From: Thermoplasmata archaeon
GTDB taxonomy: Archaea; Thermoplasmatota; Thermoplasmata; Lutacidiplasmatales; UBA184
NCBI GenBank assembly: GCA_030044105.1
Contig: JASHWL010000104.1
Location: forward strand, 1 to 29,399
Length of the DNA stretch: 29,399 nt
Direction of reading: 5' to 3'
This document shows, piece by piece, positions 2,636-13,266 of this stretch (position 1 is its first letter; each line of letters begins with the position of its first letter). Both the position numbers and the translations under genes were made by a program. The notes under the pieces are model-generated. The model saw nothing but the letters and a program-made list of their open reading frames with translations, searched no databases and was not told where the DNA came from.

Positions 2636-2643
2636 TATTTATA
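2636..2643 (+). promoter_or_regulatory. TATA box (TATTTATA) of dppB paralogue 1
   Basis: Consensus-like octamer starting 66 nt before the ATG at 2702. Confidence 0.6.
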
Positions 2644-2701
2644 GACGGGAAGGGCTCGACCGGACGCAGTTGACGGGCATCCGGTCGGGAGGGAGCGGGC
2701 G

Positions 2702-3928
2702 ATGAAGATGTGGGCGTACATCGTCCGGCGATTGCTGCTGATGGTGGTCATCATCATCGGCGTGATGACCGTCACCTTCGCGCTGGTCAGCGCGGTGCCC
2801 ATCCAGGACCGGCTCGCCTCGTACCTCGGGCCTCCGCCGAAGGGGACCCCCGGGGGGTACAGCCCCTACCTGACGCCGGGCGAGGGGGTGTGCCCGGCGA
2901 ACGCCACGTCGAACTGTCCGAACCCGTTCTACCAGTACGCGATCAATCGGCTCGGGCTCGGCGGCCCGGTCTACCTCCAGTGGGGGATCTGGATGTACGA
3001 CAGCTTCACGCTCAAATGGGGCTACGTCGCGAACCACAGCGAAGCGGCCGCGGCGTTTCCTCCGGCGGACGGCAAGCCGGTCCTCACCGTCCTCGGCTGG
3101 TTCCTGCCGTACTCGCTCGAGCTCGGCGTGGTCGCCCTGCTCGTCCTCTTCGCCTCCATTCCCCTCGGGATGTACGCCGCGCAGATGCGCAACCGGCCCG
3201 CGGACCAGGGGATCCGGGTGCTGTCGTTCTCCGGCCTCGCGTTCCCGGACTTCCTCTTAGGGACGATCCTGCTCCTCGCCGTGCTGCTGCTCTTCGGGGC
3301 GGCGAACCATTGGCAGTCGTACGGCTGTCCGGGGTACGGGACCCTCTTCGATGTCTACGGCTCGTGGCCACCCCCCGGGTGCTTCCCGGATGCCGTGGCG
3401 ACCAATTCCGGATATCCGGCGTGGCTGATCGGCGGCTACCTGAGCACGCCCACCGGATTCCCCACGATCGACGCCGCGATCCACGGCGACTACGTCCTCG
3501 CGCTCGACACGATCTTCCGAATGCTGCTGCCGGCGATCATCGTCGTGTACGACTCGATCGGCTTCCTGCTGCGCTTCGTGCGGAACAGCATGCTCGAGGT
3601 GATGAACCTCGACTTCGTCCGGACGGCGCGCGCGAACGGCCTGCCCGAGCAGGTCGTGCTCAAACGGCACGCCGGCCGGAACTCCTGGAACGTCACCCTG
3701 ACGGTGCTCGGGCTGACGATCGCGGGATTCTGGGCGGGGTTTCCGGTGATCGAGTCGATCTTCGGCCTGCACGGCGTCGGCTACATCCTCGCGGTCTCGG
3801 TGGCGCAGCCGATCGACTACGGCCTCACGTTCGGCTCGACGATCCTGTTCACGATCATCATCGTCCTCGCGAACCTCGTCGTCGACATCATGTACGCCTA
3901 CCTCGATCCGCGCGTCCGGCTCGGTTGA
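2702..3928 (+). CDS. dppB: Peptide/nickel ABC transporter permease, DppB/OppB type, paralogue 1
   Basis: N-terminal YIVRRLL...GV.T.TF, EAA-loop region RFVRNSMLEVMNLDFVRTARANGL, C-terminal VDIMYAYLDPRVR. 408 aa. Confidence 0.93.
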   Translation: MKMWAYIVRRLLLMVVIIIGVMTVTFALVSAVPIQDRLASYLGPPPKGTPGGYSPYLTPGEGVCPANATSNCPNPFYQYAINRLGLGGPVYLQWGIWMYDSFTLKWGYVANHSEAAAAFPPADGKPVLTVLGWFLPYSLELGVVALLVLFASIPLGMYAAQMRNRPADQGIRVLSFSGLAFPDFLLGTILLLAVLLLFGAANHWQSYGCPGYGTLFDVYGSWPPPGCFPDAVATNSGYPAWLIGGYLSTPTGFPTIDAAIHGDYVLALDTIFRMLLPAIIVVYDSIGFLLRFVRNSMLEVMNLDFVRTARANGLPEQVVLKRHAGRNSWNVTLTVLGLTIAGFWAGFPVIESIFGLHGVGYILAVSVAQPIDYGLTFGSTILFTIIIVLANLVVDIMYAYLDPRVRLG

Positions 3929-3992
3929 ACCGGCGCGATTTTCGCGCGGCACTCGGTAAGTAGTCCACCGGGTCCTCGCCGCTCGGGCCCCC

Positions 3993-4000
3993 TATATATA
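3993..4000 (+). promoter_or_regulatory. TATA box (TATATATA) of dppB2-dppC-dppD-dppF
   Basis: Perfect TATA octamer in the intergenic gap, starting 66 nt before the ATG at 4059. Confidence 0.65.
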
Positions 4001-4058
4001 GCGGCTCATGTCTCGGCATGGCTCGGCGGCCGGGAGACCGCCGAGGGGGGCGGCGGCG

Positions 4059-5285
4059 ATGCGGATGTGGACCTATGTGGTTCGCCGCCTCCTCCTCATC
4101 GTCCCGATCATCCTCGGCGTGATGACCATCACCTTCGTGCTGGTCAGCGCGCTCCCGCTCGACGAGCGGTTCACGGCGTACCTGGGAGTTCCCCCGAAGG
4201 GCCAGTCCTACGCCCCGACGCTCGCGCCGGGCCAAGGGGTCTGTCCGGCCAACGCGACGCAGAACTGTTCCAACCCGTACTACCATTATGCGCTGAACAA
4301 GCTCGGATTGAACCAAGGCGTCTGGGTGCAATGGGGCGTCTGGATGTACAATAGTCTCACGTTCAATTGGGGTCACGTCGGGAACGCGAGCGACGTGGTG
4401 GAGACCGTCTATCCCGAAGCGAAAGGACTGCCGGTCACCGAGGTCCTGGGCTGGTTCCTTCCCTATACCCTGGAGCTCGCGGCCTTATCGCTCGCGATCA
4501 TCATGGCCGTCGGCATCCCGCTCGGCAACCTGTCGGCCGTCTACCGGAACCGGCCGGTCGACCAGGCCTCCCGCGTGATGTCGTTCTCCGGGTTCGCGCT
4601 GCCGACGTTCCTCCTCGGGAGCTTAGTGCTCGCCGCGGTGCTGATCGGCTTAGGGTCCCTGAACGGCTACCACTCCTACTTCTGTAGCACCGGCACCACA
4701 TTCCAGGACTTCACGGGGTCCTGGCCACCGGCCTACTGTTACGCCTCGCCCGATCCGACCAATCTCGGGTATCCGAGTTGGCTCACCGCCGGCTACATCA
4801 GCCACCCGACGGGCTTCCCGACGATCGACGCGCTGATCCACGGCCAGTGGTCGCTCGCCGGGGACACGATCCTCCGCATGATCCTGCCGGCGCTCATCAT
4901 CGCCTACGGGACGATCGCGCTCCTGCTGCGGTTCGTCCGGAACAGCATGCTCGAGGTCATGAACCTCGACTTCGTCCGGACCGCGCGGGCGAAGGGCGTC
5001 CCGGAGCGGACCGTGGTGCGGCGCCACGCCGGGCGCAACTCCCTGAACGTCACGATCACGGTGCTGGGTCTGACGTTCGCGTCGTTCGTCGGCGGGTTCC
5101 CGGTCGTGGAGTACCTGTTCAACCTCCGCGGCGTCGGGCAGCTCCTCGCGTACTCGGTCATCACCCCCATCGACATCGGCCTGATCTTCGGGACCACGCT
5201 CCTGTTCACCTTCCTCGTGGTCGGGGCGAACCTGATCGTCGACGTGCTCTACGCGTATCTCGACCCGCGGGTGCGGCTGGGGTAG
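4059..5285 (+). CDS. dppB: Peptide/nickel ABC transporter permease, DppB/OppB type, paralogue 2
   Basis: Same motifs as paralogue 1 (RFVRNSMLEVMNLDFVRTARAKGV, YAYLDPRVRLG). Start placed at 4059 (MRMW) by alignment with MKMW of paralogue 1. 408 aa. Confidence 0.93.
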   Translation: MRMWTYVVRRLLLIVPIILGVMTITFVLVSALPLDERFTAYLGVPPKGQSYAPTLAPGQGVCPANATQNCSNPYYHYALNKLGLNQGVWVQWGVWMYNSLTFNWGHVGNASDVVETVYPEAKGLPVTEVLGWFLPYTLELAALSLAIIMAVGIPLGNLSAVYRNRPVDQASRVMSFSGFALPTFLLGSLVLAAVLIGLGSLNGYHSYFCSTGTTFQDFTGSWPPAYCYASPDPTNLGYPSWLTAGYISHPTGFPTIDALIHGQWSLAGDTILRMILPALIIAYGTIALLLRFVRNSMLEVMNLDFVRTARAKGVPERTVVRRHAGRNSLNVTITVLGLTFASFVGGFPVVEYLFNLRGVGQLLAYSVITPIDIGLIFGTTLLFTFLVVGANLIVDVLYAYLDPRVRLG

Positions 5286-5310
5286 CCGGACGGAGGCGGA
5301 GCGGAGAACG

Positions 5311-6450
5311 ATGAGCACGCCCGAGCCCGCCGCACCGGACGTCTACGAGACCTCCACACGGGGTCCGTCGTTCCGCCAGCGGATGGCCCCCCGGATCGCG
5401 CAGAGCAAGAGGACCTGGTACTTCCTGCGGCGGAACGGCCTCGCGATGGCGGGACTGATCATCCTGCTCCTGATCGCGGCGGTCGCGATCTATGCGCTCT
5501 CGACCCCGCTGTCGTACCAGTACATGACGGAGTACTGCGCGACGAACGGGGCCACGTGCCTGGTCTCGCCCTCCGTCTGCACCTACCCCCAGGGCACGGT
5601 GGCGCCGGGTCCCGGCTGCTACCAGACCCCGGCGGACTTCCCGTCGGTCATCGCGCCGACCTGGGCGAGCCTCACGCAGCCCGGGCCGTTACCGCTCGGT
5701 TCGCTGTCGGTCGATCCCCCGATCCAGTACTTCTACAACACCTATGACGGGCTGTTACGAGGCTCCGATTGGTCGATGCTGATCTCGCTCACGATCGTGG
5801 GCGCCGGCGCGACCATCGGGCTGTTCCTGGGGGCCGTCTCGGGCTACATGGGCGGCGTCGTCGACGAGGGCCTGATGCGGCTGGTCGACATCTTCCTCTC
5901 CATCCCCCAGCTCCTCTTCGTGATCGTCGTCGTGACCGTGCTGATCACGCTGTTACCGACGAGCGGGACCGATTTCGCCGCGCATATCTACCTCCTGATC
6001 GGCGGCTTCCTCGTGACTTGGTGGCCTTTCTATGCGAGGCTCGTGCGAGGTCAGGTCCTCGTCGTGCGGGAGCAGAAGTACGTCGAGGCGGCGCGCGCGA
6101 GCGGCGCGAGCCGGGGACGGATCATCCTCCGTCACATCGTCCCGAACAGCGTCTACCCCGTGTTCATCCAGATGTCGCTCGACGTCGGCACGATCCCGAT
6201 CATCATCGGCACGATCGTCTTCCTCGGTATCCGGATCTTCCCGTCGACCTACCTGCCCGAGTGGGGCACGATCGCCGCGCTCTCCGTGTTCGACCTGAGC
6301 GCGTTCTGGAATTCCTGTCAGATCGCCGCCTGCGTCATCCCGTGGTGGCAGCTCCTGTTCCCCGGGCTCGCCCTGTTCCTGTTCGCGATCAGCGTGAACT
6401 TCCTCGCCGACGGGCTCCGGGACGCCCTGGACCCCCGGCTGCGGAGGTAG
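5311..6450 (+). CDS. dppC: Peptide/nickel ABC transporter permease, DppC/OppC type
   Basis: GAVSGYMGG.VDEGLMRLVDIFLSIP, EAA motif YVEAARASGAS..RII.RHI.PN, terminal N.LADGLRDALDPR. Confidence 0.93.
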   Translation: MSTPEPAAPDVYETSTRGPSFRQRMAPRIAQSKRTWYFLRRNGLAMAGLIILLLIAAVAIYALSTPLSYQYMTEYCATNGATCLVSPSVCTYPQGTVAPGPGCYQTPADFPSVIAPTWASLTQPGPLPLGSLSVDPPIQYFYNTYDGLLRGSDWSMLISLTIVGAGATIGLFLGAVSGYMGGVVDEGLMRLVDIFLSIPQLLFVIVVVTVLITLLPTSGTDFAAHIYLLIGGFLVTWWPFYARLVRGQVLVVREQKYVEAARASGASRGRIILRHIVPNSVYPVFIQMSLDVGTIPIIIGTIVFLGIRIFPSTYLPEWGTIAALSVFDLSAFWNSCQIAACVIPWWQLLFPGLALFLFAISVNFLADGLRDALDPRLRR

Positions 6451-6455
6451 GCCTC

Positions 6456-8156
6456 GTGGCAGCGGCGGCCCCCCGGACCTCTTCGTCGTCGGCCCCGGCG
6501 GACGACAGCCCAGCCCTCGATGCCTCGGCGCTCGAAACGGTCGCGGACCCGAGCCGACCGGACGCCGATCCGATCGTGCTCAACGTCCGCGAGCTCCGGA
6601 CCTACTTCTACACCTACGACGGCGTCGTGAAGGCGCTCGACGGCGTCACGTTCAAGCTGCGGAAGGGAGAGACGCTGGGCCTCGTCGGGGAGACGGGCTG
6701 CGGGAAGAGCGTCACGTCGTTCTCGATCACGCGCCTCATCCCGGACCCTCCTGGCCGCATCATGTCCGGGAGCGTCCTGTTCCGGGGGGCGGACGTGCTC
6801 TGGGACCTGGAACGCGAGGCGAAGTTCAAGCCGATCGGCGACACCGGGCGGGTCAAGATCAAGCGCTCGTTCCGCCGCATCCGCGCGGCGACCGAGCGCA
6901 TGTCCGCGATCCGCGGGGGCGGCATCTCGATGATCTTCCAGGAGCCGTCCCAGGCGATGAACCCGATCTTCTCGATCTCCGACCAGGTCTCGGAGGCGCT
7001 CCTGCTCCACCGGGGTCAGGAGGTCGTGCAGCACCTGCTCGACGCCGACGAGGGCAAGGTCGCCGCCCGCGTCGCCTCCCGGGGCGCAGGGAACGCTCCG
7101 CCCCTCGAGGGGTCTCCCCCGGAAGAGTCCGCGACGACCCTGGACGCGGCGATCGATCGGCTCGTCGTCGCGGCCCGGACGTCGGACCGGCCGGGGGCGC
7201 TGGCCGCGGCGGCCGACATCGGCCGGCTCGCCGGCATCCGGACGATCGGGACCGAGTGCTACTACACCGCCCGGGATGCCGGCGCCACGCTGTCGGAGTC
7301 CGGCGCCGAGGTCCGCAAGCGGTTCGCGCGCCTCAAGCTCTCGCCGCTCCAGCGCAGCTACCTCCGCCGCGAGAAGAAGCGAATGGAGCTGGTCACGAAG
7401 CTCAACCAGGTCTACCTCGACGAGATGCGGGCCCGGTCGCCGCGGGGCCGCGAGCGGCGCTCCATCGGCCGGAAGATCCGGGCGCTGCGGTGGAGGACGT
7501 TCTACTTCGGCCTCTGGGGCATCCGGAGCCACGTCAAGAAACCCCTCACCAACGAGGCGTTCTGGGAGACGGTGCAGCTGCTCGAGGGCGTCGCGATCGC
7601 GAACCCGGCGCGGGTCGCGCGCGGCTACCCCCACGAGCTGTCGGGCGGCATGATCCAGCGCGTGATGATCGCGATGGCGCTCTCGGCGGACCCGGACGTG
7701 CTCATCGCGGACGAGCCGACCACGGCCCTCGACGTCACGATCCAGGCGCAGATCCTGGAGATGATGCGCCAGCTCAAGCACCGGGTCGGGACGGCGATCC
7801 TCCTGATCACCCACGACCTCGCGGTGATCGCGGAGGTCGCGGACCGGGTGTGCGTCATGTACGCCGGCGTGATCGTCGAGACGGCGCCCGTCCAGGAGCT
7901 CTTCCGGCGGCCGCTGCACCCGTACTCGCAGGGCCTCCTCTCCTCGATCCCGCGGGTGGACGAGCCCTCGAAGCGGCTCGCGTCGATCCCCGGGGCGGTG
8001 CCGAACCTGATCACCCCGCCGACCGGGTGCCGCTTCCACCCTCGCTGTCCGTACGCGATGCCGATCTGCAAGGAGACCCGGCCGCCGACGACGGTCGAGG
8101 GAGAGGGTCACACCGTCGCCTGCTATTTATACAAGGGTCCCGTCGCCGTGAACTAG
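6456..8156 (+). CDS. dppD: Peptide ABC transporter ATP-binding protein DppD/OppD with large internal insertion
   Basis: Walker [10 protein letters not shown]-loop FQEP, signature LSGGMIQR, Walker [13 protein letters not shown]-loop ITHD, C-terminal [10 protein letters not shown] Cys cluster. GTG start at 6456 follows GGAGGT. 566 aa. Confidence 0.9.
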
Positions 8157-8163
8157 GAGAGCC

Positions 8164-9375
8164 ATGGCCCTGCCCGATCCAGCCATGGACGGTCGGCCCG
8201 TCGTGCTGGCGGCCCGGAACATCCGCAAGCTCTTCCCCATCCGCGGGGGGGTCTTCTCCTCGCACATCGGTGACGTGCACGCGGTCGATGGCGTCAACCT
8301 CACGGTCCGCCAGGGCGAGACCGTGGGGCTCGTGGGAGAGTCGGGCTGCGGCAAGACCACCATGGGCCGCCTCGTCCTGCGGCTGATCGAGCCGACCTCC
8401 GGCCACACCTACTACCGGCCTCCGCCCGAGGTCTTCGACCGGCTCGACGGACTGTACCGCGCGATCGCGCCGACCGGCGCCGAGGAGCCCAACAACGGGA
8501 AGGCCGCCGCCGCCGCCGAGAGCCTGGCGCAGCTCGACGAGATCGCGGAACAGTACTCGCTGTACCGGAAGTCCGGACACCAGATGCGGGAGCTCCGCGG
8601 GCGCCTCCAGATCGTGTTCCAGGATCCGTACAGCTCGCTCTCGCCCCGGATGCTGGTCCGGGACATCGTGACCGAGCCGCTGGCGATCCAGCACGTGGGC
8701 ACGCGCGCCCAGCGCTACGAACGCGCAGCCGAGCTCCTCCGGGAGGTCGGGCTCAACCCGGAGCACCTCTGGCGGTTCCCGCACGAGTTCTCGGGCGGGC
8801 AGCGCCAGCGGATCGGGATCGCGCGCGCGCTCGCGCGGCGTCCGGAGTTCATCGTGCTCGACGAGCCGACCAGCGCCCTCGATGTCTCGGTGCAGGCCCA
8901 GATCCTGAACATCCTGCGCACCCTCCAGGACGAGCAGCAGATCTCCTACCTGTTCATCTCGCACCACCTGTCGGTCGTCCGGGCGATGAGCCAACGGGTG
9001 GTCGTGATGTACCTCGGCCAGATCGTCGAGGAGGCGATGACCGACGAGCTGTTCACCCGGACGCTCCACCCCTACACGCAGGCGCTCCTCTCGGCCATCC
9101 CGATCCCCGACCCGACCCTGAAGCGCCAGCGCATCGTGCTCCAGGGCGACGTGCCGAGCCCCGCGGCCCCGCCGTCCGGGTGCCGCTTCCACACCCGCTG
9201 CCCCGCCGTGATGCCGGTCTGCTCGAAGGTCGAGCCGAGGCTCGCGGAGATCCGGCCCCGGCACTGGGTTTCCTGCCATCTGTACACGCCCCCCGCGGAG
9301 GTCGCTCCGGAGGCCTCGGCGGCCGCCTCGGCGCCGCTCCCGTCGGACGCCGCCCCCTCCGGCGCCGCGAGCTAG
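8164..9375 (+). CDS. dppF: Peptide ABC transporter ATP-binding protein DppF/OppF
   Basis: [31 protein letters not shown]-terminal [11 protein letters not shown]. 403 aa. Confidence 0.93.
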
Positions 9376-9401
9376 GCGCCCGGAGGCTCTCGAGGAGGGC
9401 C

Positions 9402-9959
9402 ATGGCGACGGACGGATTCCCCGAGGGGGGGCCCAGCACGAGCTCGGGAGGGAAGCGTCGCTGGTTCGGGCTGCCGAGCCAGTCCGACCTGCCCCCCGAG
9501 GTCCGCGAGGAGATGGAGCTGGCCCGGCAGGACCCGGGACCCACGTGGCGACAGTGGTTCTTCTTCAGCGCCGCGAAGTGGTGGCTGGGCCTCGCCTTCC
9601 TCGTCGTGGACGTCTGGATCCTCGTGAGCGCGCTCACGTACGGTCCGCTCACCCTGCTGCTCCTCGTGGTCGCGGTCTACGCGGAGATCTTCACCTGGCA
9701 GTACCTCTGGCACCGGCCCGAAGGCCGGTCCCAGAGCGCGAAGGGTGCGCGCCGGATGTGGTGGATCCGACCCGTGGCGGTCGGGCGGTGGACGCCCGAA
9801 GCCGAGGAGGACCGGGTCCCCGCCCCGGTCTCGGGGGCCACGGACCATGGCCCGGACCCGCGAGAGTTCCTGCAGGACATCTGGGGCCCCCGCCCAGCGG
9901 TCGGACGGAGCGAGGCCCGACGGGGAGGGGCGCCGGCCCCACCGAAGGGACGGACCTGA
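9402..9959 (+). CDS. Hypothetical membrane protein (two TM segments, Trp-rich)
   Basis: GAGGAGG Shine-Dalgarno before the ATG at 9402. Hydrophobic hairpin KWWLGLAFLVVDVWILVSAL / LTLLLLVVAVYAEIFTWQYLW. Lies at the end of the dpp operon. Confidence 0.7.
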   Translation: MATDGFPEGGPSTSSGGKRRWFGLPSQSDLPPEVREEMELARQDPGPTWRQWFFFSAAKWWLGLAFLVVDVWILVSALTYGPLTLLLLVVAVYAEIFTWQYLWHRPEGRSQSAKGARRMWWIRPVAVGRWTPEAEEDRVPAPVSGATDHGPDPREFLQDIWGPRPAVGRSEARRGGAPAPPKGRT

Positions 9960-10052: not shown

Positions 10053-13000
10053 TCAGACCACTCCGTTCCCCTGCACGAAGTAGAACAGGTTGTCGCCTGC
10101 CCACATCGGGTTGAGGTCCAAGGTCGCCGGGTTGATCCACGGCGCGTAGGTGCCGACCCCGTCCTGCTGGAGGGTGTACTGCTGGAGGGACAGCGCGTTC
10201 CCGATGTGCTCGATCATGTTGTAAAGCAGCGTTCGGGTCGCTCCCGCGGGCGTCGTCCCCGCGATCCCCATCCAGTAGTCCATCGTCATGAACGCCACGC
10301 CCTGGCAGTCCTGCGGGATGTAGGGGGTGTTCGCCCAGAACGGCAGGTTGTCGAGGTAGCTCTCGCACGACTGCCCACCGATGGTGCCCGAGTTGTAGGC
10401 CGCCTGGCTGAACGTGTAGAACGTCGCGTCCGGCGAGCCGTACGACCCGTTGGTCCAGAGGGTCGGCATGTAGTCCGTCGGGTCCGGGAAGTCGGGCGCC
10501 CAGCCGAGCGTGTAGAGCGGCAGGGCCAGCGTGGACGGCGGGCTCGAGAGCGTGTCGGTCACGAGCTGGCTGAAGCTCAGATCGAACGTGTTCGGCTGCA
10601 GAGCTCCACCCGACAGCGCCTCGATCTCGTGGATCCACAGCTGGATCGCCGCGTCCCCGCTCGGGTCGCCGAGCTCCCCGATGATGGGGAACTCGCACGG
10701 GTTGGAGGTGGTGCAGTGCTGCGCCACCCACGAGTCGTAGAGCGGGCTCGACGTGTTCGAGTACAGCTGGGCCCACCACCACGCGGCCGTCCCGGGCACG
10801 GTCGGCGTATTGCCCGGATCGGTCGAGGGCCACGTGATGTTCTCGGGATAGTAGTTGCCCATCCCGCTCGGGATCGCTCCACCGTAGTTGGACCCGTACT
10901 CGATGCCGTCGACCGTGTTGATGGTGTTCTCCACGGTCGTGTACGGGAAGGCGTAGTTGATGAAGTTCCGCACCGAGTCCGAGGCGAAGAAGGTGCCCGG
11001 GACGTTCAGGGTGAACGGATCGATCGCCTGGGCTGCCTGGACGTCGAAGGTGATCGCGTAGCTGTAGAAGAAGATGTTCAGCGTCGGTGCAGTGACCGCG
11101 CCGATCTTCCCCTCCGAGATCAGCGACAACATCGTCGGCGTCTCGGGCGGCAATATCGTCGCGAAGTCCGTCTGCTGCGCGATGTATTGCTGGATCCCTT
11201 CGGTATCCGAGTCGTCCCAGTAGACCTTCACGTTCGGCGCGTAGGTCCCGGGCGCCGGCTCGCACCACTGCTGGCCCACGCAACCGGTGGGTTGCTGGTA
11301 GGCCGGGTTCGCCGCGAGCGTGTAGCCGACCGCCGCGTTCCAGGCGCCGACCAGGTAGTACGGGCCCGAGCCGACCGCGTTGTAGCGGACCTCCTTGTTG
11401 ATCGCCGGGTTGTTAAACTCGAGCTCCTGCATCGCATCCCACCCGGTCATCCCGAGCGTGTTGTTGATGTAGTTCAGGAAGGTCACACCGTTGATCGACT
11501 CGGTCGTGCTGGTGTAACCCCCGGGCAGGGTCGTCGGGCAGTCCCCGCTGCTCGGGCAGGTCGAGGGGAGCGTCCACCCGGGCAGCATCGCGCCCGTCCC
11601 CTGCTGCGTGAACCAGCCCGCGGGAACGATCCCGCTGCCGAGCGGGTCCGCGATGAACTGCAGGAAGTTCGACCACGCGCGCGGAGGCAGCGTCAGGCCG
11701 TTCTGCGCGCCCGGCGCGTTCGCCACGAACGTCACGCAGCCGTTGTCCTGACTCATCGCGATCGCCGGACAGTAGCTACTGTCGTTGACCAGCATCGAGT
11801 TGAAGATATTGTACGGGGTGTTGTTGAACGGCTGGTGGATCCCGTACCCGGTGAGCGCCGAGCTGTCCCAGGTCAGGTTCCCCGCGGGTAGCAACGCTTC
11901 CGAATCGATCCAGCCGGCGGTCGCCTCGATGGCCGGAAGGTCCGCGTAGGACATCGTCCGGGCGAAGCTGAACACGACGTCCGACGGGTAGACCGGCCAC
12001 GACACCTTGGTCGTCGGGTCATAGAACCGGGCGTTGGAGTCGAGGACGAACGTCCAGTAGACGTCCTGGCCCTGCGAGTTCGCCGTCAGAAGGTCGTTGC
12101 CGCCGTAGAGCGACGCGCACTGCGCCGTGCCCGGAACGCAGGTCGCCAGCTGCGGGATGAACGTAGCGGTGCTCGTCCCGTTGTAGGTGACCAGCGTCTG
12201 GTAGACGTTGTAGACGATCTCGGCGCTGACCGTGTCGTAGGAGATCGCGGGGTCGATCGTCGTCGCGCCCGCCGGAGCGACCTCGTACGCGGTGATCGTC
12301 CCCGAGTGGGGCGAAGTCGCGGAGTGGCTCGAGCTGGTTCGGCACTGGCCGCAGCCCGGCGCGAGTCCGCTGGGGCTCACGTAGACCGACCAGGTGTAGT
12401 TCTGGTAGATCGTCTGCGAGGTGGCGGTGTCCAGGATCGGACCCACCATCGTGATGGTGTAGGCGCCTGCGGAGGCGAAGCTGTAGGTGGCCGACCCGCC
12501 CGAGGACGTCGGCGAGGCCGACGTCTGCGTCCCGCCGGTGGCGGTGAAGGACGTCGTCTGCGGAACGTAGGCCGGGTTCGCCGGCGCGGTCGTGTAGGTG
12601 GCGGACACGGAGATCGTCCCCTTGCCGCCGGAGAGCCAGCCGTACTGGGTGGCGGCGGTGGAGCCGTTGGTCAGGGTCGCCGTGACGGTCGGGTAGTAGC
12701 CCGAGCTCTGCGTGCCGAGCGACGGGCCGATGACGACGGGGTAGAGCGCGGCCGTGCCCGTGTGCCACACGCCCTTGACCTCCGCCTGGGCGGAGACGAC
12801 GTAGGTTCCGAGGCCCGCGTAGGTGTGGCTGAACGTCGGAGCGAGCTGGGTGGTGTTGGTGCCGTCGCCCCAGTTCACCTGGTAGTCGGACGCGGCTTCA
12901 GGAACGCTGACGGTGACAGGAAGACTTTGGCCCTGGGTCAGGGTAAGGACAGAAGTACCGAACGCGGGAGAATACGCCACGAACGTACTCACGTCGTTTC

Positions 13001-13214
13001 CCCCGGCGGCCGCCTTACACGCCGCGCTCGTCGCCGGAGCGCAGGACGTGACGGTCGTGGGCGAGGAGCTGCTGACGGAGCTCAGCGCGGCATAGCCGCC
13101 GGCCCCGACCACGATGATCACCACGATCAGGATCACCGGCGCGAGGACCATCGACGCGCCCCTTCGGCCCGACCAGTTCTTAGGATTCTCGTTCTGCTGT
13201 GCGCTCATGGACAT
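10053..13214 (-). CDS. dppA: Large family-5 (peptide/nickel) ABC substrate-binding protein with N-terminal membrane anchor and PKD-like domain
   Basis: TIDPAISYD..S.EI..NVYQTLV, DVVFSF.R, GSGPYY, LGWAPDFPDP.DY are family-5 SBP hallmarks. VNWGDG...HTY...G.Y.V is a PKD-like repeat. Start uncertain among 13226, 13214 and 13208; 13214 follows GTGAGGG. Confidence 0.85.
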   Translation of the reverse strand: MSMSAQQNENPKNWSGRRGASMVLAPVILIVVIIVVGAGGYAALSSVSSSSPTTVTSCAPATSAACKAAAGGNDVSTFVAYSPAFGTSVLTLTQGQSLPVTVSVPEAASDYQVNWGDGTNTTQLAPTFSHTYAGLGTYVVSAQAEVKGVWHTGTAALYPVVIGPSLGTQSSGYYPTVTATLTNGSTAATQYGWLSGGKGTISVSATYTTAPANPAYVPQTTSFTATGGTQTSASPTSSGGSATYSFASAGAYTITMVGPILDTATSQTIYQNYTWSVYVSPSGLAPGCGQCRTSSSHSATSPHSGTITAYEVAPAGATTIDPAISYDTVSAEIVYNVYQTLVTYNGTSTATFIPQLATCVPGTAQCASLYGGNDLLTANSQGQDVYWTFVLDSNARFYDPTTKVSWPVYPSDVVFSFARTMSYADLPAIEATAGWIDSEALLPAGNLTWDSSALTGYGIHQPFNNTPYNIFNSMLVNDSSYCPAIAMSQDNGCVTFVANAPGAQNGLTLPPRAWSNFLQFIADPLGSGIVPAGWFTQQGTGAMLPGWTLPSTCPSSGDCPTTLPGGYTSTTESINGVTFLNYINNTLGMTGWDAMQELEFNNPAINKEVRYNAVGSGPYYLVGAWNAAVGYTLAANPAYQQPTGCVGQQWCEPAPGTYAPNVKVYWDDSDTEGIQQYIAQQTDFATILPPETPTMLSLISEGKIGAVTAPTLNIFFYSYAITFDVQAAQAIDPFTLNVPGTFFASDSVRNFINYAFPYTTVENTINTVDGIEYGSNYGGAIPSGMGNYYPENITWPSTDPGNTPTVPGTAAWWWAQLYSNTSSPLYDSWVAQHCTTSNPCEFPIIGELGDPSGDAAIQLWIHEIEALSGGALQPNTFDLSFSQLVTDTLSSPPSTLALPLYTLGWAPDFPDPTDYMPTLWTNGSYGSPDATFYTFSQAAYNSGTIGGQSCESYLDNLPFWANTPYIPQDCQGVAFMTMDYWMGIAGTTPAGATRTLLYNMIEHIGNALSLQQYTLQQDGVGTYAPWINPATLDLNPMWAGDNLFYFVQGNGVV

Positions 13215-13266
13215 TGTGTCCCTCACGACCCCCGCGACGGGGTCTTACGGCCGAGCCCTGAGCCGG

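Follow-up and report, generated by a model that had tools for sequence, protein, structure and literature searches.

Two tandem dppB genes with conserved promoter-like leaders before a single dppC in a Thermoplasmata archaeon: a possible alternative B subunit of a peptide-type ABC importer

Type I ATP-binding cassette (ABC) importers are usually described as fixed assemblies, with specificity in the binding protein. In E. coli DppABCDF, DppB pairs with DppD and DppC with DppF, the translocation pathway of DppB consists of transmembrane helices (TM) 3-6, and a scoop motif of DppB, located between TM1 and helix alpha-3, enters the cleft of DppA (PMC12136057). The Opp system of Borrelia burgdorferi has five OppA proteins, two permease pairs (OppB1C1 and OppB2C2) and one OppDF, the permeases being reported as constitutively expressed (PMC5736914). 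Here we analyze a 29.4-kb stretch of DNA (the window in what follows; about 70% guanine plus cytosine, GC) from an uncultured Thermoplasmata archaeon of peat or acid soil, in which two DppB-type permease genes, dppB1 and dppB2 (products B1 and B2), stand in tandem before one dppC, one dppD and one dppF (products C, D and F). The window is contig C66 of the metagenome-assembled genome (MAG) denoted G000 (1.33 Mb, 223 contigs, 66% complete), and the sister species is represented by the MAG G096 (84% complete). The elements of the importer are the following.

2636-2643, forward strand: TATA-like octamer, all A/T, 66 nucleotides 5' of the dppB1 ATG; TATTTATA
2702-3928, forward strand: dppB1, 408 amino acids, BPD_transp_1 (PF00528, E 7e-29), the more derived DppB-type permease paralogue
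3929-4058, forward strand: B1-B2 spacer of 130 nucleotides, with a T4 tract just past the B1 stop and the second TATA-like octamer
3993-4000, forward strand: TATA-like octamer, all A/T, 66 nucleotides 5' of the dppB2 ATG; TATATATA
4059-5285, forward strand: dppB2, 408 amino acids, BPD_transp_1 (PF00528, E 1e-31), the orthologue-like DppB permease
5311-6450, forward strand: dppC, 379 amino acids, PF00528 and OppC_N, the single DppC-type permease
6456-8156, forward strand: dppD, ATPase with an oligo_HPY C-terminal region and a long insert within the ABC domain
8164-9375, forward strand: dppF, ATPase of 403 amino acids, ABC_tran and oligo_HPY

The reading that we favor, with a probability of about 0.55, starts from a tandem duplication of a cassette of promoter plus dppB, which took place in the ancestor shared by G000 and G096. 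The downstream copy B2 stayed orthologue-like and tightly linked to dppC-dppD-dppF, while the upstream copy B1 underwent a burst of substitutions, mainly in TM2, TM4 and TM5, before coming under strong purifying selection. We infer that B1 assembles with C, that it is regulated separately and that it may differ from B2 in its preference for a substrate or a binding protein. B1 would then most likely be an alternative B subunit that joins the one DppC and the one DppD/DppF pair, and the two promoters would determine the proportion of B1-C-D-F to B2-C-D-F among the translocators of the cell, both kinds being served by the two large binding-protein paralogues of the same two species. The evolutionary part of this account is solid; the functional part is a proposal.

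Both copies exceed the Pfam cut-off of 26.4 for BPD_transp_1, with scores of 101 bits for B1 and 111 bits for B2. The operon partners of a PepT-type importer are also present, namely a C-type permease carrying OppC_N and a pair of ATPases with oligo_HPY at the C terminus. The coupling (EAA-type) helix carries the DppB RTA signature, R307, T308, A309, R310, and G313 being invariant in 28 B sequences including B1, and the RTARA segment aligns onto the coupling helix of E. coli DppB. B2 aligns to the E. coli protein (E 2e-30) over TM1, TM2-3, and TM4-6. No substrate-specific NCBIfam equivalog (DppB, OppB, NikB, and others) was reached, the best scores being 148 bits for B1 and 182 bits for B2 against cut-offs of 350-590. 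On these profile matches, "peptide" is therefore a family label only, standing for the peptide/opine/nickel group of ABC importers.

The two paralogues of 408 codons had been recognized at these positions in a preliminary description of the locus, together with the TATA box starting exactly 66 nucleotides before each ATG (the octamers at 2636 and 3993), and both observations hold. Their identity, judged by eye as 55-60%, is slightly higher when measured (61%, with 75% positives, over the full length in BLASTP), and the paralogy itself stands.

The same gene order, B1-B2-C-D-F with a convergent binding-protein gene, is found in G096. In a maximum-likelihood (ML) tree of 51 B sequences from about 40 sampled species, the B1 clade formed by G000 and G096 is sister to the B2 clade, with an ultrafast bootstrap of 96 and a Shimodaira-Hasegawa-like approximate likelihood ratio test (SH-aLRT) value of 99. 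As the two clades are sisters, the duplication is lineage-specific rather than ancient, and the tree places the origin of this young pair in the common ancestor of G000 and G096. Among species-representative genomes, an orthologue of B1 occurs only in G096, all other B proteins being at most 57% identical to B1; the identity to the single-copy B of other species is 59-69% for B2 and 52-58% for B1. An ancient paralogy or a horizontal origin of B1 is rejected by the ML tree and by the fact that no sequence in the same set of genomes, G096 aside, resembles B1 at more than 57% identity. A pair that is ancient and conserved across Thermoplasmatota, which the preliminary description had put forward for a check by phylogeny, is thus not what the tree gives, as the pair is confined to these two species. 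The stem lengths in the ML tree are 0.526 for B1 and 0.241 for B2; judged by these branches, B1 diverged about twice as fast as B2 after the duplication.

Peat and soil metagenome contigs from two studies (Logan) cover the stretch, and one of them spans 3835-4046; these contigs are short and show presence in peat and soil metagenomes and bridging of the B1-B2 junction only. An assembly artefact as the source of the pair is ruled out by this contig and by the same gene order in a different species, G096.

Both B1 reading frames are open, and the amino-acid identity between G000 and G096 is 94% for B1, compared to 92% for B2, 93.5% for C, 90% for D, and 92% for F. The ratio of nonsynonymous to synonymous divergence (dN/dS) between the two species is 0.066 for B1, 0.111 for B2, 0.076 for C, 0.139 for D, and 0.099 for F, at a synonymous divergence (dS) near 0.5 (0.54 for B1). 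B1 has the lowest ratio of the five subunits, so that dN/dS, suggested as a check in the preliminary description, finds B1 intact and under selection.

At genus-conserved columns (conservation in 85% or more of the B proteins that are linked to an operon, these two aside), B1 carries 16 fixed changes and B2 carries two. All 16 are located in membrane segments (TM1, TM2-3, and TM4-6; examples are N157M, V161Q, G284D, L329W, F340I, and G345A), and the alignment to E. coli DppB places them in helices that include those of the translocation pathway. The two long outside loops, where B varies most across the genus (38-42% identity), contain none of the 16. All invariant family columns are retained in B1, including the RTARA coupling segment. 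B1 scores below B2 against all family models. Such a burst of change followed by strong constraint fits an altered role better than redundancy or decay.

The window contains four all-A/T octamers, at 2636, 3993, 8124, and 13267, the last one just upstream of the binding-protein gene, and that two of the four stand at an identical offset before both paralogues is far beyond chance. Both leaders from the TATA-like box to the ATG are near-identical between G000 and G096, with further 5' sequence diverged and coding dS at about 0.5. An A/T-rich octamer 64-72 nucleotides before the start is also present at 8 of the 11 copies in the genus's other tandem arrays, which agrees with a duplication of promoter plus gene; the cassette proposed in the preliminary description is supported by both results. 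The gap between dppB2 and dppC is 25 nucleotides and lacks an A/T octamer of the promoter type, because of which B2-C-D-F look co-transcribed. A strict scan for all-A/T octamers was rejected as a definition of a promoter, since the octamer occurs in just 37 of 102 B upstream regions and the scan is too strict. A hairpin around the T4 tract was also considered as a B1 terminator and rejected, as it is not conserved in G096.

It is worth mentioning that the octamer at 8124-8131 (forward strand) lies inside the last codons of dppD (Y-L-Y, with a TTA codon), 40 nucleotides before the dppF ATG; an internal promoter and a chance occurrence are both conceivable.

The conserved leader at each copy is also what would be expected from subfunctionalization at the level of expression only, where B1 and B2 are equivalent, with the same substrate and binding-protein preference, and the two promoters answer different conditions or adjust the dosage of B. 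The retention in B1 of the coupling-helix segment and of the invariant family columns agrees with such equivalence, as does the existence of recent, little-diverged lone B duplicates, e.g., in G053 and G048. However, the 16:2 asymmetry of the changes and the twofold longer stem of B1 point to altered constraints rather than to mere redundancy, and B without a matching amount of C would be useless. We consider this explanation unlikely, although it has to be kept in mind.

The duplication of B is not restricted to this pair of species. A homologue is present in 141 of the 150 species genomes of the genus, most of them with one B, and the ML tree indicates that B duplicates were retained at least seven separate times. 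Tandem arrays have three separate origins, namely in G000 and G096 (two copies), in G042 (two copies), and in G010, G108, and G150 (three copies). The last three genomes have three tandem dppB genes followed by one dppC (L031, L047, and L046 in G010, G108, and G150, respectively), with copies that are orthologous position by position, which indicates two successive duplications in their common ancestor. Dispersed lone copies of B are found in G017, G048, G053, and G126, with separate origins, and the tree shows the lone DppB loci to be recent duplicates of operon copies. In G007, G144, and G015, an extra dppB is located about 3 kb 3' of dppF (L032:7012-8220, L051:4653-5861, and L043:5179-6387, respectively) on a long stem (0.55), which we read from the branch length as a second case of accelerated change after a duplication of B.

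Lone copies of C exist as well. In G003, G010, G108, and G001, a DppC is encoded away from any B, D, F or binding-protein gene, and on the tree the lone C of G003 and that of G010/G108 derive from the operon C by recent duplication. The loci of both kinds are listed here.

Lone DppC loci (no ABC partner gene within several kb): L048, L049, L050, L063
Lone DppB loci (no ABC partner gene within several kb): L033, L058, L060, L061

Genome-wide tallies of copy numbers (at E<=1e-40, about 30 genomes with more B than C and about 18 with more C than B) were rejected as a test, since MAG incompleteness, the threshold, and paralogous operons confound them; locus-level synteny and trees were used in their place.

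The preliminary description had also counted one DppC, one DppD, and one DppF, which is correct at the locus. No second close DppC was found in G000, within a MAG that is 66% complete, and a search of G096 at E<=1e-40, in a MAG 84% complete, found one C and no second DppC of this type. The C-gene fragment on contig C19 of G000 belongs to a separate C-D-F operon, and C23 carries a 28%-identical system. One DppD of this type is present in each of the five tandem-array relatives that were checked (G096, G010, G108, G150, and G042), and no second full-length relative of this DppD was seen in G000, an incomplete MAG. As a separate observation, the operon at C19:1-2473 of G000 is a second Dpp-type operon (end of the C gene, D, and F) that is cut at the contig start, its B gene being unassembled.

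These copy numbers bear on the possibility that the partner of B1 is a DppC, perhaps along with an ATPase, from an unassembled part of the genome, the two forming a separate translocator. The completeness of the two MAGs leaves room for such a partner, and lone DppC duplicates far from B, D, and F do occur in G003, G010, and G108, with a DppC lacking such neighbors in G001 too. A second close DppC was, however, not found in G000 or G096 at the completeness given above, and B1 is located directly 5' of the operon in both species. We regard this scenario as quite improbable.

The favored partner of B1, the single DppC, was examined by modeling of the B1-C complex. The model has a score of 0.71, compared to 0.01 for the best of three controls. 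Of 80 solved complexes, 58 attained that mark, as did 2 of 110 mismatched pairs. At least 85% of the contacts agree between the runs, and the predicted local distance difference test (pLDDT) value of the partner is at least 74. Because solved DppBC and OppBC complexes exist, passing this mark shows likeness only and not binding by B1. Four of the 16 B1 changes (positions 16, 24, 345, and 387) fall within the modeled interface with C.

The common fold of B and C means that there is no steric bar to a B-B pair, and B1 could in principle form a heterodimer with B2 or, without transporting anything itself, modulate the translocator or serve as a decoy for it. Such a heterodimer would, however, need a D-D pair, since B pairs with D and C with F in E. 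coli (PMC12136057), every operon of the genus keeps an OppC_N-bearing C beside B, and B1 has kept all family-invariant residues, all of which make this alternative very unlikely. That B1 is a decaying or functionless duplicate, as its faster evolution after the duplication and its lower scores against the family models might suggest, is hardly credible in view of the open frame in both species, the 94% identity, the dN/dS of 0.066 at a dS of 0.54, and the conserved promoter-like leader.

The neighboring genes of the window that have to be considered next are the following.

9402-9959, forward strand: small open reading frame (ORF) after dppF, 185 amino acids, two hydrophobic helices, no Pfam family
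10053-13226, reverse strand: very large solute-binding protein, family-5-like, 1057 amino acids, convergent to the operon

The 1057-residue protein matches SBP_bac_5 at 21.8 bits, below the cut-off of 32.4, with a PKD match that is also below its cut-off and no match in NCBIfam. Its gene is syntenic with the operon across the genus. A second paralogue is present in G000 (C184:4779-7901) and in G096 (contig C19, L144:5894-8947), 65-66% identical in tblastn, and both second copies are located away from any permease or ATPase gene. This paralogue arose on the shared stem lineage of G000 and G096. A duplication of B and of the binding protein in one event is nevertheless unsupported, as their rate-normalized depths differ. 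Most genomes of the genus have several copies of the large binding protein, up to five or more per genome, with many orphans among them. The proposal of the preliminary description that the permease, and not the binding protein, is where selectivity is switched does not fit these findings, given the second paralogue in the same two species and the abundance of orphans in the genus.

The importer had also been drawn as extending to position 9959, but DppF ends at 9375 and 9402-9959 is a separate ORF. Its frame is conserved 3' of dppF in four relatives (G096, with 73% amino-acid identity, G010, G003, and G022). From its position, it is probably co-transcribed with B2-C-D-F, and it may encode an accessory membrane subunit of the importer. 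The start codon of dppD, GTG, was inferred from the reading frame and the position of the dppC stop. The DppD insert, about 170-250 amino acids within the ABC domain, is kept in every relative examined, and relatives of DppD match the full 518-residue query at about 56-64% identity. The outside loops of the B proteins contain conserved Cys pairs and N-x-S/T sequons (window positions 2800-3070 and 3290-3450 for B1, and the same parts of B2).

The contigs of the relatives are from Thermoplasmata MAGs of peat and acid soils, including AcS and SubAcS isolates of a study on the Lutacidiplasmatales. For that order, the study reports a GC content of about 69%, extracellular peptidases active in acid, and a peptide/nickel ABC system (PMC9287336).

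Several observations weigh against B1 as a separately regulated, alternative B subunit. There is no clear terminator 3' of B1, the T4 tract after the stop being the sole element conserved there between G000 and G096, and B1 may thus be merely the first gene of a longer transcript. With G000 and G096 at the completeness given above, a second DppC or ATPase could be unassembled, and some relatives do have a DppC gene standing alone. A single B is found in most of the species that encode several binding proteins, which means that extra binding proteins do not require an extra B. Finally, the rate-normalized depth makes the duplication of B look older than that of the binding protein.

If B1 is nevertheless an alternative subunit, the E. 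coli structure offers a possible rationale. The scoop motif and the pairing with DppD make B the subunit best placed to read the binding protein, which, by analogy, may explain why B has been duplicated repeatedly. A more tentative extension, possible but in our view rather doubtful, would be that B is a swappable specificity module throughout the genus, repeatedly duplicated with its own promoter, with copies that compete for one C-D-F core. One copy would differ from the next either in the orphan binding protein to which it is tuned, by way of the enlarged outside loops that correspond to the scoop motif of DppB, or in its substrate class, by way of changes in the helices TM2, TM4, and TM5 (G284D, for instance). 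A type I ABC importer would then be assembled combinatorially, with one membrane subunit as the exchangeable part.

If B subunits can be exchanged while C-D-F is shared, the membrane could be a further place to set specificity or regulation, and a heterotroph with a small genome could widen its uptake range at the cost of one extra gene. The repeated, independent retention of B duplicates in one genus also provides a natural series for testing where in DppB the binding protein or the substrate is read, with the loops of the scoop region and the helices of the pathway as candidates. The case remains a modest one, with a young duplication in two species, an inferred function, and a modular precedent in Borrelia.

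The comparison with known systems puts the locus in perspective. It belongs to the B-C-D-F heterotetramer family of E. coli DppABCDF (PDB 8z1v-8z1z; PMC12136057), with which it shares the RTA coupling helix and the oligo_HPY regions on D and F. In contrast to the E. coli system, which has one B only, it has two, with a large insert in DppD and a binding protein of about twice the size. The outside loops of the archaeal B proteins are also longer than those of E. coli DppB (about 90 versus 50 amino acids for TM1-TM2, and about 55 versus 24 for TM3-TM4), with Cys pairs in the archaeal proteins. Binding-protein paralogues encoded off-operon are known from E. coli MppA with Opp and from S. pneumoniae AliA/AliB with Ami (PMC5736914, PMC12136057), where the diversity is in the binding protein only, whereas here a membrane subunit is multiplied too.

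In the literature searched, we found no description of a tandem duplicate of B alone that has its own promoter and recurs within a genus. The closest precedent at the system level is the Opp system of Borrelia burgdorferi (PMC5736914); a modular design in which several binding proteins and more than one permease share a single ATPase heterodimer, with components that are dispersed and separately promoted, would be common to both. The features of that type observed here are the two B genes, the single D of this type, and the two binding-protein paralogues in G000 and G096, as counted in incomplete MAGs. In Borrelia, B and C are duplicated as pairs, whereas here B alone is duplicated, in tandem before one C, and the host is an archaeon. 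The B-only tandem duplicate is thus a variant of a known modular design and not a new kind of system.

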